The notes beneath the pieces are model-generated. The model was not told the origin of the DNA, did not search any database, and saw nothing but the letters and a program-made list of their open reading frames with translations. A stretch of 64,000 nucleotides of DNA from Escherichia phage PGN829.1. The stretch is from the sequence record NC_070871.1; one strand, 5' to 3'. Shown here in pieces: positions 56,401 to 62,311 of this stretch; position 1 is the first letter of the stretch; the number at the start of each line of letters is the position of its first letter. Made by a program: the position numbers and the translations under genes.

Positions 56401-57837
56401 GCTCGCGGTGAACGTGGTAATGAACCACTGCTGCCTGTATATGATGATAAAGGCAATGTGGTTGCTTATGAGCAATCTATTGACCCTAACATGCTGAAGC
56501 ACATTGAGGGTGAGAACCATCTCGCTCGTGCAATCGGTGTATGGCGTGGTCGTCAGGTAGAGGAAGCTAAGGCTCAGCGTTTCAACGATATGCTGATTGA
56601 GAACCTGCATAGCATGTATGAGAACGACATTAAGATGTCTACCTCTAATAAGTCACAGTACGTTAACCTTCTTGGTTCTAAACTGGATCCAGTAACTGCT
56701 GATGCTCTTAAACTGATGAACAGTGAAACTCGTCAGAAAGCAGAAAGTCTGTTTGGTGAAGGTGAACTGTGGGTACGTCGTGACATGCTGAATGATGCAC
56801 TGGGTTATCGTGCAGCTTCTGTAGGTGATGCCTGGTCTGGTAACTCTCGTTGGTCACCGGAAACATTGGATACCTTCAAGAAAGCTATGTTGGGTGTATT
56901 TGGCAACCGTGCTTACAAATATGTAATGGGTGGTGAGAATCTGGTTCAGAACTTAGTTAAAGAAGCCAAAACTCTGATTGTAGTTAAATCAGTAGTTGTG
57001 CCTGCTGTTAACTTCCTGGCTAACCTTTACCAGATGGTCGGTCGTGGTGTACCTGTTAAGAACATTACTAAGAGTATTCCACAGAAGACTGCTGAGATTA
57101 ATCAGTACCTGAAATCTCGTCTGCGTCAGGTAGATGCAGAAGCGGAATTACGTGCAGCTACTAACCCGAACCAGATTCGTAAACTTAAAGCTGAGATTCA
57201 GTCCATCACTGATAGCCATAAGCGTATGAGTATCTGGCCTCTGTTAGAAGCTGGTGAGTTTTCTTCAATTGCAGATGCTGGTATTGGTCGTGATGACATC
57301 CTGATTACTGAAGGTAAACTTCATGAATACATGGATAAGCTGGCTGATAAGTTACCTAAGTCTGTACGTAATGCTGGACGTTATGCACTTATCACCAAAG
57401 ATACTGCTCTGTTCCAGGGTATCCAGAAGACGGTTGAGTACTCTGACTTTATTGCTAAAGCAATCATCTATGATGATTTGACTCAGCGTAAAGGTAAGAC
57501 TCGTGAAGAAGCACTTGGACGTGTAACGGAAGAGTTCATTAACTATGACCGTCTGCCTGGTCGCTTCCGTGGGTATATGGAAAGTGTTGGTCTTATGTGG
57601 TTCTATAACTTTAAGATTCGTTCTGCAAAAATTGCAGTATCCATGATTCGTAACAACCCGGTACACGCAGCTATGGCTATGTTGGCTCCAACTCCTACCA
57701 TGTTTGGTAATGTTGGTTTACCTATTCAGGACAACATCTTCAGTATTGCTGCACAAGGCAATCTCGGTTACTCCTGGGGCTTCGGTCAGGGACTTCGTGC
57801 CCATAACCTTAACCCTTGGCTCAATCTAGCTAACTAA
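47467..57837 (+). CDS. virion-encapsidated RNA polymerase (vRNAP, N4 gp50-like giant protein)
   Basis: Single 3456-aa ORF (N4 vRNAP about 3500 aa); last gene of the late operon, converging on a bidirectional terminator. Confidence 0.9.
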   Translation: MNRKHAMSTFDRLAGFADSITNAKQVDVSTATSQKQAAQGQSPFQLTPENAYNLQTGRVGNLGIGAFEPGSLQADFTQASPLEILNKYGNEQGLQIINSRANAADVVRQDLSKQRTNAEAFGDTLSGVGLGVANTLGGIAALGTGLVNDNAGASIASGMDWLNEGVHNLQSDALNATRKVVQNQNQISAQKNQKLYEEDIKNGESSLVASLSRIGRDAFDSVANTLDNGMAATDGLSEGVGSLFTGGPLIRGVSALGKVMVGGDKAVKGITLAAELGSRPAQIALSAGRVAAPAIAIGGMEAGGAYQQTASEIMKMSHQELASKSPVYQQHIADGLSPDEARRQTASETGIIAASLTAPVAAATGPLVSKFELNPLKVGSLAGAGSNMLRETVEEGIQSGTSQFAQNKAIQGNVDAKRDLLKGVGEQAGLGALYGFGSAGVSQAPGATVKAVGASAGPALRTTLAGASLVGSALAKAASPITNILVQRGEEVAKRNEQASPVSDATVNAAAQEATAQAEQAQATVQEAVDAMDISPEEKAAATQYAADLTQAMKFDPVELEQANPAIREAVSGSTNRVEAIQKMADLVNTAEDPNVQMEAAIQMYDNIMSMDSFINRDPGALANLEQGSPAAAIVDQFSGLMANVQNTPKVLRAFRAIHSMIQEQAEAGKLKATEEANQAQANNIAMAADMSPEVLDADSVNMILKHASEGKITLGNHQRAALQSAAALLQGAREFDAKAEELGLRPQDIVSKQIKTDESRSNEGQYSALQHAKRIRSAYNSGNFDLASAYLDDFMKFAQHMQNKVGALNEHLISGNADKNKSVHYQALTPSREWVRSRTGLGVNPYDTKSVKFAQQVGLEAKTVADIANALATAYPELNVSHVKVTPLDSRLDKPAAQVVKEFRQGGLDATQSQQTNEPVNQVDETPAPAQETTTTVQPKAKPVVENKTVPVKEASSKAEEVSTTKSETVDATLTNEDTTQKVAETKTEMETVFPVYNNDKTPNQFLKSFTLPEEPKSRTIGSESPLTDIKQALSSTARFEAFTQKENNALTSDVIKRYQDLMGFGETLKTTLSDRLAKFLANKNVGKRFAEGTEANRWVGGKLLNIVEKDGDTFKFNDQLLETAVLAGLQWRLTATQNAAVKDMKDVAAITGVEASLLPEGILADFENAQTLVEATNSLAQKIESYWGLNRNPNAPLGYTKGIPMAMATEILSSFIEMGEVKESMLDVSEFDPDSNKTVGLYTIEKLDDNDAINKFPTAIEEAVLVEPEEKMYFGDDIPSVAQTQLRNPAVKNTPEQKAALKAEQATEFRVHMPMVNFYEALGRDNILELMGAGTLNPELLNVNTAKSLEGKNLSVSMAYDSLFGVINQLQEQENGLDTPIHYGYNMTRVGRMQMLGKNNPQSSKLVREAILPTFSTIDLSNENSQTFSDFQLGLAQALGIKVHNMSREAMSEKLTKALEGNLKPAVDMVVEFDKSGHLPANAVDILKTSLGGDKSFVALMALMEYARYLNSDDRANFNTPLYVEADGVTNGPINAMVLMTGGKFTSDWVKNTAKGGLFFGKAGKTMNEHRSQDDSVDLYEASTNGLQQALNELRTTYRNNVPVMNQMNHLQKLMDLFIKDFNLNEDGTLDLKRGIAKNPLTITIYGSGARGIAGKMVSAITDTIYERFSDVLQARAADPSISPAMAMFGKEAASEADAQAMLDTFLTSMEALTGNVPVMRKGELSIQQVEGALTGKLDPQKFTVSGNALKNLQENMLHLFVEPMRTGIRNTVGEGLMHSTENLQKATQIQSLVLQDMFQQRVQEKLAEKEKDPTWKKGDFLTQKELNEIQESLSPLAPMIETGSQTFYIAGSENTDVANQVLATNLDDRMRVPMSIYAPSQAGVAGIPFMTIGTGDGMMMQTLSTMKGAPKNTLKIFDGMNIGINNITDASRKANEAVYTSWQGNPIKNVYDSFSKFMKNVDFSKLSDETKQAIAKSALEYDQREGATDDLLRVGAEQIERNLRNIALGVDIRHKVMNQVQTTVDQMAAVGAPYVNNGKISLEGLTVDQQVAKLNELFDAELNKRRDAVRAAKVEPVKEVPAMEQVGRVLKSGVRLLSNTAISKLAKEMSPEQQAVLKEVQKSLAAKDYKVVYGTPSQLDAYAIEKNITRPAPEDIEAAEAGNAYGWTNFEDKTIYLVTPSLETLVHELVHASTFESVLAHYEGTPNEAVQNIEDLMNQFRALDVKDESPAVREAYADALNTINGHLSNGFIEPAMAKAAALNEYMAWGLTNRELISKQKKTTALKTMVQAVYEAIKRLVFGRKKAPANADDMFSGLLFNSSVVMRGQAPTAAVVKDTTLFHNKTYGDNTRLEELGKTFDKLITDYIGSEPVQQVIRKGKFSDAVVNATKVTRDVQAHGFTMNMQEQRLFTNIVAALATEAAINPAALARAQEYYTHVTKNLTVESFMTDPDSTNPADRYYAQQKFDTIMGANNIEFDSQGRSSLLPTFIGLAMVSEEVRKVLADIPVMKVDKKSGNTADAMLTNIGTAAMASLNARVAGDTKATNVQEGMDALAQTIMQTSLNAQSFYDSVATPTGNAIDRANQYLVDSIDVLSTRALEGAREVAANTKNPLVKGAAHAAQLIAAIATEKNGAIVAEGVMAAMNQGKVWQPFHDLVNDLTGRTKSNASVYDLIKAVRAQVQADRQQFREHLPTTIASKFSRKLTNDEWKAMHTGMGKTDLAVLRDTMSLAEIRDLLTDQKIVDREVNKLEADLQKQAGRNWPLINRKSKQLAQYMINGTVGNNLLRNATAISRMLGERQAARSTVDVAQLDKLITLYALEAMSKTDREVLSSLAQTEIEGMDFATSYLVGQRKDEMAKAKSDTRATLNQYKGYIPGETKQGVNLIVAEDSQFADLIEKSYVRLGTYQGSSANRGPARSYYFAPVQAQAPFSQGILQNVRNTAGGVDLGTGFTMGTMVAGRITDKPSVDRITKALARGERGNEPLLPVYDDKGNVVAYEQSIDPNMLKHIEGENHLARAIGVWRGRQVEEAKAQRFNDMLIENLHSMYENDIKMSTSNKSQYVNLLGSKLDPVTADALKLMNSETRQKAESLFGEGELWVRRDMLNDALGYRAASVGDAWSGNSRWSPETLDTFKKAMLGVFGNRAYKYVMGGENLVQNLVKEAKTLIVVKSVVVPAVNFLANLYQMVGRGVPVKNITKSIPQKTAEINQYLKSRLRQVDAEAELRAATNPNQIRKLKAEIQSITDSHKRMSIWPLLEAGEFSSIADAGIGRDDILITEGKLHEYMDKLADKLPKSVRNAGRYALITKDTALFQGIQKTVEYSDFIAKAIIYDDLTQRKGKTREEALGRVTEEFINYDRLPGRFRGYMESVGLMWFYNFKIRSAKIAVSMIRNNPVHAAMAMLAPTPTMFGNVGLPIQDNIFSIAAQGNLGYSWGFGQGLRAHNLNPWLNLAN

Positions 57838-57844
57838 ATGAAAA

Positions 57845-57873
57845 AGCCCCTCATTAGAGGGGCTTTAATTTTT
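57845..57873. terminator. bidirectional intrinsic terminator between convergent vRNAP and DUF2829 genes
   Basis: 8-bp stem AGCCCCTC/GAGGGGCT with ATTA loop, A-run upstream and TTTAATTTTT downstream. Confidence 0.65.
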
Positions 57874-57874
57874 A

Positions 57875-58375
57875 CTAAACTAACACCCAGTCTTCAGCTA
57901 ATATATCTGATTGGGATGGGACCCAAGGCATAAACTGGTTATCAACAGTTTTGATTCCTAACCATGGACGAGGTTTCAATTCATCAGCAAGTCCTGGACG
58001 CTCTAAGCTACTGCTATTCCATTCTTGAGCAGCAACGTACTCAATGTACATTCCTTTACCATTCCAGCCTTTACGGGCTAGTTTGAAGCCGGATTTGAGA
58101 AGCTCTACTGCATGACCAAAGGTGCAACCTTTTTCTACGTCATGGTACGCAGTTTCAAATGCAGATTTAGGTGACCAGCTAATATAGCCACGGAACTGAG
58201 GATGGTTAGACTTAGAGTCTGGGTACTCTACTAAGTAACCTTCTTCTAATGGGTCCTCATTAGCAGGTACATCCCAGCCACGAAGTTTGCAGTATGTTTC
58301 TTTGTTCATTCGGAAACCATTTACACACTTGGTTCCGATATAATTGGTAAAATGGACTTTAATTTCTTCTGACAT
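57875..58375 (-). CDS. DUF2829-domain protein (Tad2-like candidate cyclic-nucleotide sponge) with extra N-terminal domain
   Basis: Trimmed to ATG at 58373-58375 (GAGG SD); C-terminal half FGHAVELLKSGFKLARKGWNGKGMYI...PWVPSQSDILAEDWVLV matches recalled DUF2829 signature. Confidence 0.5.
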   Translation of the reverse strand: MSEEIKVHFTNYIGTKCVNGFRMNKETYCKLRGWDVPANEDPLEEGYLVEYPDSKSNHPQFRGYISWSPKSAFETAYHDVEKGCTFGHAVELLKSGFKLARKGWNGKGMYIEYVAAQEWNSSSLERPGLADELKPRPWLGIKTVDNQFMPWVPSQSDILAEDWVLV

Positions 58376-58393
58376 AACTACCTCAAATGAGAA

Positions 58394-58425
58394 AGCCCTC
58401 ACTAGGAGGGCTTGTTTTGTTTTGG
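58394..58425. terminator. hairpin with T-tract (terminator-like), between DUF2829 gene and upstream gene
   Basis: Stem AGCCCTC/GAGGGCT with 5-nt loop; TGTTTTGTTTT on plus strand, weaker TTCTCATTT on minus strand. Confidence 0.35.
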
Positions 58426-58493: not shown

Positions 58494-58886
58494 TCAGATT
58501 GTACAACCACCACCATCACAGGTGTTGTTTTCTGCAAAGGAAGCCAGAGCTTTAGCAGTCTCTTCTTTCTCATGCAGTACCTGACGTAGCAGGTAACCTT
58601 CTAATTCCCAAATCTTATTGAATGCATTTTCATATGCATACTGACGGCCTTTTTGCTCATCATAGATAGCTGGGTCAACACAGGCAGATACACCTTCAAC
58701 TTTGAAGCCATTTTCCAAGATGATAATGCAATAGGTTATCAGACCCAGGTTAGCCAAATCATCTGCCGGGAGTGCAGATGGATCAACAAATGCAGACTTC
58801 ACTGCATCAGCTCCATTAAAATAGTAGACGCTCTTAATCTTAGCTTCGATTGCTTCTTTACTTACTGTTGCCATTATTAGCCTCAT
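58494..58886 (-). CDS. hypothetical protein
   Basis: 130-aa ORF (possibly starting at internal ATG 58874); no family recognised. Confidence 0.35.
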   Translation of the reverse strand: MRLIMATVSKEAIEAKIKSVYYFNGADAVKSAFVDPSALPADDLANLGLITYCIIILENGFKVEGVSACVDPAIYDEQKGRQYAYENAFNKIWELEGYLLRQVLHEKEETAKALASFAENNTCDGGGCTI

Positions 58887-59080: not shown

Positions 59081-59762
59081 TAGTACTATTTACCCATAGC
59101 TGGGAGGCTTTTGGTTCTTACCACGAAGACAGTCCACGCTGACCAGGCTTGGGATTGATAGTCCCGTTCCTGTGGTAATTACTCAGGCTAGGATTTAAGG
59201 AGTTCCTATTCTCCAGCGAAATTCCCGTCGAAGGGAATAACAATACAATAGCAGCCACTGGACTGTCTTACCAGTGTTGTCTTTAGAGTGCGGTGCAATC
59301 AGGACTATGTTACTGCTAAATAGGTGAGTCATGCCAGACTCTAACTGGCTCCTTCTTCGCAATCCTTACATACCCCTACATAATTATTGCGTTAAGCTTT
59401 TTTGTTTAAGTTTAAGTGAAGGCGTTCTTGCTGACTCATAATAGGGTGGGCGTTTGACGAATGACTAGTTCGTTACTACCCATTTGCCATAAGTACCTGG
59501 CGACTTGGGTTTGAGGTGGGAGTCCGAGTCCTGTACAGCCTTACCGTTAACACATTGGCAGCGTATCTAGAATTGCACTTCCGGCAACTGGATTTAACTG
59601 TTACACCTCAAATATGGTAGGGGCGTCCAGAAGTCTCATCTGGTACTTACGCCGTCGTATGGTTACGACTTACCCCCATAATTCTTCCAATTCAGAGTAG
59701 CACTGTCACGGTAGGTGCTTTAAATGCCGGGAAACATTTAAATATACAATGCTACTTTGAAT

Positions 59763-59886
59763 TGGTTATCAGTGAAGGATTCGAACCTCCGGTTGGAGTC
59801 TATAGCTTACCGCAGCAGCCCTCCAATCTAGCGGTGTCACACTTAGTCCAAACTTGAACATGTCAAGCCATCTCGTGCAACTGATA
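59763..59886 (-). tRNA. tRNA-like element 1 (acceptor stem, D-arm-like, T-arm, encoded CCA; 124 nt, no canonical anticodon arm)
   Basis: Minus-strand read: TATCAGT...GGAGG-TTCGAAT-CCTTC-ACTGATA-A-CCA; 7/7 acceptor pairing; U8, A14, G18G19 at expected positions; about 48 nt excess in the body. Confidence 0.4.
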
Positions 59887-59888
59887 AT

Positions 59889-59954
59889 TGGTTCCGGCGT
59901 CTGGACTCGAACCAGAACACTCATGCCGTGCACGGCACTAGTACCTACACCGGA
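59889..59954 (-). tRNA. tRNA-like element 2 (acceptor stem, T-arm, encoded CCA; only 66 nt)
   Basis: Minus-strand read: TCCGGTG-...-TCTGG-TTCGAGT-CCAGA-CGCCGGA-A-CCA; 2 nt from element 1; central GCCG-TGCA-CGGC hairpin instead of D/anticodon arms. Confidence 0.4.
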
Positions 59955-60135
59955 ATAAATTGCCAGGGATTCCACCTGGCTCCATCTGTTTTTAAAGTCA
60001 CTCAGATATCGTCTGGACTTGTTGTGGAGTGACGCACCACCTCACTCTTAAATGTTAACCCATTCCCAGCCCCACAACACACGCTACGGTTAAGATTATT
60101 GCGCATGGTGTATGGTCTTGCTGGTCACAACGGAA

Positions 60136-60218
60136 AGAGCACTTGCGGAGTCGAACCGCCTTGTCTTCTAGAGCTTTCGCATATAACTAATCGCTAGTCT
60201 ACGTCACCCGTAATGCTC
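60136..60218 (-). tRNA. tRNA-like element 3 (acceptor stem and T-arm, no encoded CCA; 83 nt)
   Basis: Minus-strand read: GAGCATT-...-GGCGG-TTCGACT-CCGCA-AGTGCTC-T; acceptor 7/7 with one G-U; body does not fold into a canonical cloverleaf by hand. Confidence 0.3.
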
Positions 60219-60912
60219 TTTCCTGTTATGTTCCCTGACTTATTAATCACACCTCAGGGACGCAGTGCGCCGAATTTGTTTACAAGGAATCGGAAGACCT
60301 TGCTGACTTACAGGCTATTACGCCGCCATCAGAATAACATCATCGTTTGCATTTATGTAATTGGTTCGTTTCTAAAAAACCGCATAATCGCTTACGAAAA
60401 CTATCAAAGAGTACACTAAGCACAGGTAGCTATCCTGCCGTCTTCTCTACCTACACCGGCTACAGTGTAGACCTCCGCACGTTAGCTTAATATACTCATT
60501 GATAGGATGTTATAATAGGGGAGGGAGGACGAGTCCCTCTTTACCCTATGATTTAGTTTACACGTAAGACCTAACATTTCAATGCTGGATGAATAGAGTA
60601 ATGAACTATCCGACATTAATGGTTAATGTTGTGCTCAGCATGAGCGTTAGTTGATAAGGGATCTGAAGCCTTATCCCAAAGATACTAACCTTTGGGATAT
60701 AGCCTAAGATTCAGAAATGGCCACTATAGGGAGAGGCCATTGATTAACCCGAATGTTGCTTTACATTTTCTGTGATAACCCATTCTTAAAATAGTCTGTC
60801 TGACGGATGGGGGGCCACCCCTAGCGTCAGTGCCATACGGCAAAGATTAAGTTAAGAAAGGTTATGATAGGAGTTCCTATCTCAAAGGATTCTAACAGAA
60901 CCCTTCACGATA

Positions 60913-61756: not shown

Positions 61757-62311
61757 TTATGCCTTTAATAACTTAATGAGGTTCTGGAAAGCTGGGAGAT
61801 TTACACCAGCGTGGATTGCACCGATTGCATCTGCTAAGTGCTCATTCTTATTCAGAAGTTTGCCCTTCTTATCAGTGAGCCAGTTGGCTTCTGGATAGAC
61901 GGCATGAGCAGCACGAATCATCGTGTCCTTAGATGCAGTTTTATCACCGACCAGTGCAAGTTTGTTTTCAATTGGGGATACTTCAAAGATTGGACAACCT
62001 AATGCACGAAATGCACCTATTAATCCTACGCATACGCCATAGGATTTCATACCGTTAGCAGACTGAGAGCCTACTGGTACTTCTACGAATACTGCTTTAG
62101 CAGACCGTAACCATTCTTCACAACCAAGAAACAAATCGTGAGCGGCTTGTATATCTTTGGAGTTGGTTCGAACTTGTTTGTTGTGGTCAACTTCAGTTTG
62201 AACCAGTTTAAGTTCGACCTGCTCGAAGACGCCGGACTCAATGTCCAGCATCCCACGAGCTAAACCCCAATTGCGGAGACTAATGTCTGCACCAACAATT
62301 GGGATTTTCAT
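61757..62311 (-). CDS. RuvC-like Holliday junction resolvase
   Basis: 184 aa; N-terminal IVGADIS (RuvC GxDxGS-like), VFVEVPV, C-terminal NEHLADAIGAIHAG (RuvC H-x-AD-A motif). Confidence 0.5.
   Translation of the reverse strand: MKIPIVGADISLRNWGLARGMLDIESGVFEQVELKLVQTEVDHNKQVRTNSKDIQAAHDLFLGCEEWLRSAKAVFVEVPVGSQSANGMKSYGVCVGLIGAFRALGCPIFEVSPIENKLALVGDKTASKDTMIRAAHAVYPEANWLTDKKGKLLNKNEHLADAIGAIHAGVNLPAFQNLIKLLKA

Follow-up and report, generated by a model that had tools for sequence, protein, structure and literature searches.

A gp49-type protein of an N4-like coliphage joins a Tad2-family domain to an N-terminal domain that recurs across sponge families

Introduction

The Tad2 proteins are among the closest described relatives of the protein analyzed here. 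Among the cyclic nucleotides tested, SPO1 Tad2 bound gcADPR alone, and the ligands of other Tad2 proteins are 3'cADPR, N7-cADPR, or cyclic dinucleotides. In HgmTad2, a 41-residue insertion (residues 32–72) between β2 and β3 forms the pocket for c-di-GMP and cGAMP, and the same interface in MoTad2 (ModTad2) binds cUMP. ModTad2 retains the canonical pocket residues. Its ligands are His-ADPR (type II Thoeris) and, at a second site, cUMP or cCMP, and it leaves type I Thoeris unblocked. Because ModTad2 keeps the canonical pocket and yet binds His-ADPR, conserved pocket residues do not fix the ligand.

In N4-like phages, the interval between the primase gene and the gene for the virion RNA polymerase (vRNAP) was described in a June 2026 preprint as an anti-signaling hotspot containing Tad2, Tad3, Acb4, and Sequestin (10.64898/2026.06.04.730250). 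PF13876 is the family of the Acb4 anti-CBASS sponges (10.1101/2024.12.30.630793), and N4 acb4 activates Panoptes according to work cited in the hotspot preprint. Neither N4 gp48 nor N4 gp49 is mentioned in two papers on Panoptes. The hotspot preprint also presented RyR Tad, gp68 of Pectobacterium phage CB1. The N-terminal domain of gp68 was described as "a fold with unknown function" and formed a dimer in the crystal by swapping of strand β1, and gp68_N (residues 1–86) alone did not inhibit type I Thoeris (10.64898/2026.06.04.730250).

Here, we describe a gene of Escherichia phage PGN829.1 that converges on the vRNAP gene. The window refers to the whole stretch of 64,000 nucleotides of this phage that was analyzed (NC_070871.1).

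Results

The gp49-type gene and its orthologs

On sequence identity, the phage is an N4-like coliphage assigned to Gamaleyavirus, Schitoviridae. The phage region was 99.6–99.8% identical to those of Escherichia phages UE-S5a, UE-M3, and PBM-2/3 and approximately 87% identical to those of PhAPEC5/7. The gene is orthologous to coliphage N4 gp49 and is called the gp49-type gene below; its features are listed in Table 1. The encoded protein fell into phrog_872 (E = 1e-65, full length) and had 1595 homologs at E ≤ 1e-3. Orthologs are labeled "DUF2829 domain-containing protein" in RefSeq and "anti-CRISPR protein" or "Thoeris anti-defense 2-like protein" in other records, and PADLOC and NCBIfam gave no match for the gp49-type gene or its Acb4-like neighbor. 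Searchable literature yielded neither a published function of N4 gp49 nor binding or infection results for N4 gp49 or the gp49-type protein.

In a mechanical list of open reading frames, the gene was prolonged to a GTG codon at 58402. Because the orthologs begin with MSEEIKVHF or MEIKVHF, the ATG at 58375 was taken as the true start. The extent given to the gene in the initial annotation agrees with this ATG, the stop codon, the GAGG sequence, and the starts of the orthologs. In the region around the gene, nine terminator-like sites were found, compared with 1.8 expected. The bidirectional hairpin, which starts nine bases beyond the gp49-type stop codon, is common to this gene and the converging gene for vRNAP (3456 aa), whose stop lies at 57837. 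The hairpin lies between the two stops, and the gp49-type gene is, as described earlier, the last of a minus-strand block facing the vRNAP terminator. The second hairpin sits between the Acb4-like gene and the gp49-type gene, and it may uncouple the expression of the two sponge genes or serve as an attenuator.

Table 1. Features of the gp49-type gene and its surroundings in the window
Feature	Coordinates	Strand	Remarks
CDS, gp49-type gene	57875..58375	-	Complete, 166 aa + stop; ATG 58375, stop 57875-57877; ORF read from sequence
Tad2-like (DUF2829) sponge domain	57878..58123	-	aa 85-166; PF11195
Hypervariable Tad2 insertion	57965..58042	-	aa ~112-137, between beta2 and beta3
N-terminal domain	58136..58348	-	aa ~10-80; beta-beta-alpha-beta-beta-alpha; unnamed family
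Shine-Dalgarno GAGG	58381..58384	-	5 nt 5' of gp49-type ATG; from sequence
Bidirectional terminator-like hairpin	57843..57866	.	10 bp, 6 GC, perfect; scores on both strands
Terminator-like hairpin	58393..58413	-	8 bp, weak T tract; 18 nt 5' of gp49-type ATG
Acb4-family neighbor, N4 gp48 ortholog	58494..58886	-	Immediately upstream of gp49-type gene; PF13876

The C-terminal domain belongs to the Tad2 family

Profile and structure-database searches placed the C-terminal domain clearly in the Tad2 family. It matched PF11195 (DUF2829) with an E value of 2.5e-24 over profile positions 2–73 of 73, and the score of 86.1 bits, against a gathering score of 25, was far beyond what chance would give. The previous assignment of the C-terminal ~85 residues to DUF2829 therefore stands, and the pattern on which it had been based occurs literally in the protein as FGHAVELLKSGFKLARKGWNGKGMYI and PWVPSQSDILAEDW. 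Sequence matches in the PDB were obtained with ModTad2 (9eib/8v3e; E = 3e-21, ~52% identity), SPO1 Tad2 (E = 1e-13), and HgmTad2/AcrIIA7 (8kbi, E = 4e-11; 9kzr, E = 7e-11). The domain has the Tad2 fold, in which a helix at the N-terminus precedes an antiparallel sheet that has an insertion after β2.

The residues predicted to form the pocket are W104, N105, G106, I141, T143, D145, W151, S154, S156, and D157. In SPO1 Tad2, gcADPR or its waters are touched by W25, N26, I63, T65, D67, H71, W73, S76, T78, and D79 (Yirmiya et al.), whose equivalents in the gp49-type protein are, in this order, W104, N105, I141, T143, D145, M149, W151, S154, S156, and D157. Eight of the 10 residues are identical, the change of T78 to S156 is conservative, and H71 is replaced by the different residue M149. 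The HgmTad2 pocket residues W21, N22, G23, W87, S90, T92, and D93 are likewise identical except for T92, which corresponds to S156. The W21A/N22A and S90A/T92A/D93A substitutions of HgmTad2, which abolish gcADPR binding (Li et al.), fall on sites corresponding to W104/N105 and S154/S156/D157, respectively. In the family alignment, W104, N105, G106, W151, S154, and D157 were invariant, and most of the canonical pocket residues were so in 37 homologs. The conserved pocket residues, together with the Tad2 profile and the PDB matches, support the initial annotation of the gene as a candidate anti-defense sponge; neither a missing profile match nor a missing Tad2-like pocket, which would have spoken against it, was observed.

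The insertion of approximately 23–27 aa is of the short type found in SPO1 Tad2 and ModTad2, and phmmer aligned only its flanks to 8kbi. Neither the long insertion of HgmTad2 nor equivalents of its R31, S47, F70, and N85 were present. Because the insertion is short and the long HgmTad2 form is missing, an ADPR-type Thoeris signal is predicted to be the main ligand.

The N-terminal domain is joined to several sponge families

The N-terminal ~83 aa had no match in Pfam, and searches of the PDB with the single sequence and with a profile gave at best an E value of 1.1, to histamine dehydrogenase. The earlier view that the N-terminal ~80 residues form an extra, unassigned domain is consistent with these results; we call it the N-domain. 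No solved structural relative of the N-domain was present in the PDB searched, from which the gp68 structure was also absent. Approximately 16 positions are invariant, including G14, K16, Y28, R32, W34, P37, E40, G46, Y51, G63, Y64, S66, W67, P69, F73, and Y77, and the core motif reads IGTK...GYLVEY...GYISWSPK..FE.AY. The N-domain is net acidic, contains the conserved patch DEN..DEGYLVEY.DG, and equals the sponge domain in its degree of conservation.

When 1.84 billion representative proteins were searched with the N-domain profile, a family of 2611 clusters was obtained, of which the best 149 were used to count architectures. Pfam partners among these 149 were Tad2 in 52 proteins, Sequestin (PF21825) in 45, Acb4 (PF13876) in 20, and the Acb2/Tad1-hairpin in one. 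With local HMMs, the commonest architectures in this set were N-Tad2, N-Sequestin, Acb4-N-Sequestin, and N-Acb4; CP51_007 of a Clostridium phage is an isolate example of the last. The N-domain was located at the N-terminus in 114 of its 150 occurrences in the best 149 proteins. It was essentially stand-alone in six of the 149, with some of the six resembling truncated fusions, and stand-alone N-domain ORFs were found on short contigs. Among the homologs tabulated in the Sequestin/Lockin preprint are fusions of the N-domain to Lockin (hhalign, 98%) and a short variant of the N-domain joined to Sequestin (hhalign, 98.6%), in which the insert carrying R32, W34, and E40 is missing. The N-domain is thus joined to at least six unrelated sponge families, namely, Tad2, Sequestin, Acb4, Lockin, Acb2/Tad1-hairpin, and RyR Tad. 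We found no paper noting this recurrence, and N-domain motifs were absent from all 84 sponges of the screen in 10.1101/2025.08.24.671296.

Two other identities of the N-domain were considered and rejected. BLASTP gave no alignment between it and the neighboring Acb4 domain, of which it might have been a diverged copy, and the match of both proteins to phrog_9467 was explained by that family being an N-domain-Acb4 fusion. It is also distinct from Lockin, which was reported to be absent from the INPHARED complete phage genomes, whereas the N-domain occurs in 121 such records; in the Lockin fusions, moreover, the N-domain is a separate segment.

The local HMMs left the C-terminal region without assignment in 42 of the best 149 N-domain proteins. 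In about 40 of the 149, the C-terminal regions measured 45–145 aa, had no Pfam match, and showed little mutual similarity (for example, P0122, P0147, P0191, P0213/P0260, and P0219/P0236, among others). Some of these regions were clearly truncated Tad2. Considering the sponge partners of the N-domain, such Pfam-less regions are candidates for new sponge domains.

The β2–β3 insertion is a swapped cassette

In codon-aligned comparisons with ECBP1, N4, and PhAPEC7, DNA identity was 70–100% per 10-codon block outside the insertion but 20–50% over codons 111–140. At the protein level, residues 115–137 were 13–17% identical in relatives with 80–93% identical flanks. With respect to N4, ECBP1, and PhAPEC7, the insertion is a swapped cassette, and at least five insertion types, counted by eye, occur in the N4-like enterobacterial clade. 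By analogy with HgmTad2 and MoTad2, recombination may shuffle the specificity of the second pocket and leave the canonical pocket unchanged.

An N-domain-Tad2 gene with a long insertion (~45 aa), Kapi1_043 (L004 1225–1746), was observed in Escherichia phage Kapi1, a temperate P22-like coliphage, where it lies between the lysis genes and the gene for the small terminase. This gene indicates that N-domain-Tad2 proteins circulate in unrelated coliphage lineages with differing insertion classes.

Neighboring genes

The gene upstream of the gp49-type gene matched PF13876 with an E value of 3.2e-25 and 88.9 bits (gathering score, 27) and N4 gp48 with an E value of 8.8e-35. With the gp49-type gene, it makes up a pair of sponge genes. 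The Pfam name of PF13876, "N4 Gp49/Sf6 gene 66", is misleading since the family matches gp48 in the GenBank numbering, and this discrepancy invites mis-annotation. PF13876 was rejected as the family of the gp49-type gene because it matched N4 gp48 and the neighbor instead.

Farther from the gp49-type gene, the interval 59100–60900 (~1.8 kb) contained no ORF of at least 70 aa on the coding strand and no tRNA detected by ARAGORN; a tRNA is present at the syntenic spot in PhAPEC7 and ECBP1. The only Rfam matches in this interval were tmRNA-like and sub-threshold, at 60269–60421 on the minus strand (30.7 bits; gathering score, 47). A 184-aa gene at 61757–62311 on the minus strand had no Pfam match, and the counterpart position in PhAPEC7 is occupied by an N4 gp46-like gene. 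This 184-aa gene may be the RuvC-like broad-evasion gene "Bes1" of N4-like hotspots.

Discussion

Our results point to a protein that probably acts as a Tad2 tetramer sequestering TIR-derived ADPR signals, with an insertion that sets specificity, an N-domain that serves as an oligomerization module, and a partner gene of the Acb4 family. The sequence comparisons establish the family membership, the fold, the conservation of the pocket residues, the domain architecture, the mosaicism of the cassette, and the synteny; the oligomeric state, the identity of the ligand, and the role of the N-domain are what we infer here. The Tad2 domain would most likely build a homotetramer, as is typical for the family. 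The canonical pocket between non-dimeric protomers would sequester nucleotides produced by host TIR-domain (Thoeris) enzymes, likely gcADPR (3'cADPR) and/or His-ADPR, and this sequestration would keep the immune effector off. The β2–β3 insertion is expected to line the second Tad2 pocket at the intra-dimer interface and to confer, probably, a further specificity that varies from allele to allele. Together with the Acb4-family gene upstream, the gp49-type gene would constitute a two-gene anti-signaling module that ends the block of replication genes.

The N-domain is most likely a module for strand-swapped dimerization or scaffolding, by which the sponge oligomer is braced or cross-linked. We adopted this role from the N-domain of gp68, which is a single experimental data point. 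The many invariant polar and aromatic residues of the N-domain go beyond the usual need of a plain dimer interface and argue against a scaffold. They could instead indicate that the N-domain itself is an unrecognized anti-signaling module that acts as a sponge or binds a host immune protein, in which case the protein would be bifunctional, as the Acb4-Tad2 and Acb4-Sequestin fusions are, and would block two different signaling pathways. Guilt by fusion, the same logic that led to Sequestin, favors such a module in view of the sponge partners named above, and the ~16 invariant positions, K16, R32, W34, E40, Y64, W67, and Y77 among them, do so as well; the size of ~70 aa and the phage-restricted distribution would also suit a sponge. 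However, the sole homolog tested, gp68_N, was inactive against type I Thoeris, stand-alone forms are rare, and the short variant dispenses with the insert carrying three of these residues. In addition, the N-domain is net acidic, whereas the pockets of known sponges are positively charged. We regard a sponge or binding role of the N-domain as rather unlikely, and less likely than the dimerization or scaffold role.

A non-immune role acquired by drift of the Tad2 domain, such as the buffering of a housekeeping nucleotide like c-di-GMP, through which host physiology or superinfection could be modulated, is very unlikely. HgmTad2 has pM affinity for c-di-GMP, and the production of the N4 receptor glycan is described as c-di-GMP-dependent in PMC8669472. 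However, the 41-residue insertion of HgmTad2, which is required for c-di-GMP buffering, and the residues accompanying it are missing from the gp49-type protein, the insertion of which is short like that of SPO1 Tad2, and the genomic context is an anti-defense hotspot.

AcrIIA7 was scored against type II-A CRISPR-Cas, whereas the CRISPR-Cas systems of E. coli are of type I. A function as an AcrIIA7-type anti-CRISPR is extremely improbable: although AcrIIA7 is a DUF2829 protein found among the PDB matches and the orthologs of phages Mimir124 and phi1_146050 carry the label "anti-CRISPR protein", this label is a transfer by domain name with homology through DUF2829 only. Li et al., who could reproduce the inhibition of Cas9 by AcrIIA7/HgmTad2 neither in vitro nor in vivo, reassigned the protein as a Thoeris/CBASS sponge, with which Yirmiya et al. 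concur.

The identification of the Tad2 domain is correct but ordinary, since the family is known and the hotspot has already been described. The Tad2 part adds one ordinary member to the family, and it is the fused N-domain that makes the protein an uncharacterized Tad2 variant. Of the leads from this locus, the most rewarding to pursue is that the N-domain is fused to at least six sponge families; the insertion cassette comes second. The N-domain occurs in phages that infect Gram-negative hosts and in others that infect Gram-positive hosts, and its role, be it scaffolding, an increase in avidity, binding at a second site, or targeting, could explain why sponges are so frequently elaborated. 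It could also be used as a bait or handle for new sponge families, to which some of the Pfam-less C-terminal partners could belong; on the rather unlikely reading that the N-domain is a widespread anti-signaling module in its own right, its presence marks sponge genes reliably enough for this use. The clean swap of the Tad2 insertion among near-identical N4-like coliphages is a natural experiment on the evolution of second-pocket specificity. Because coliphage N4 has an ortholog, a classic model phage is available for the questions about the N-domain and the cassette.

N4 gp49 (ABK54417), with 160 aa, is likewise composed of an N-domain followed by Tad2 and occupies the same place against the vRNAP gene. 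Its N-domain is 89% identical to that of the gp49-type protein, whereas the insertion cassette differs, being TLVSGENWAMDKHENTVCMKQDW in N4 gp49 and EYVAAQEWNSSSLERPGLADELKPRPW in the gp49-type protein. ModTad2, also called MoTad2, from a Myroides odoratus prophage (PDB 8V3E, 9EIB) is a single-domain protein of 88–89 aa that has no N-domain, and its insertion sequence differs from that of the gp49-type protein. SPO1 Tad2 (gp34.65; PDB 8SME–8SMG), the founder of the family, shares the fold and a similar insertion length, but it is also a single-domain protein and its identity to the gp49-type protein is lower than that of ModTad2. RyR Tad comes from the same N4-like hotspot and has the same layout of an N-domain followed by a sponge domain. 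Its N-domain is homologous (hhalign, 96.4%; E = 1e-9; 29% identity over 65 columns) but lacks the RGW...E insert conserved in the gp49-type protein, and its C-terminal sponge domain is not Tad2 but an all-α domain resembling RyR Repeat12. The Acb4-Tad2, Tad2-Sequestin, and Acb4-Sequestin fusions, which occur in N4-like phages among others, likewise carry several sponge domains on one polypeptide (10.1101/2025.07.12.664507). Those fusions combine two proven sponges, whereas the N-domain of the gp49-type protein is a candidate.
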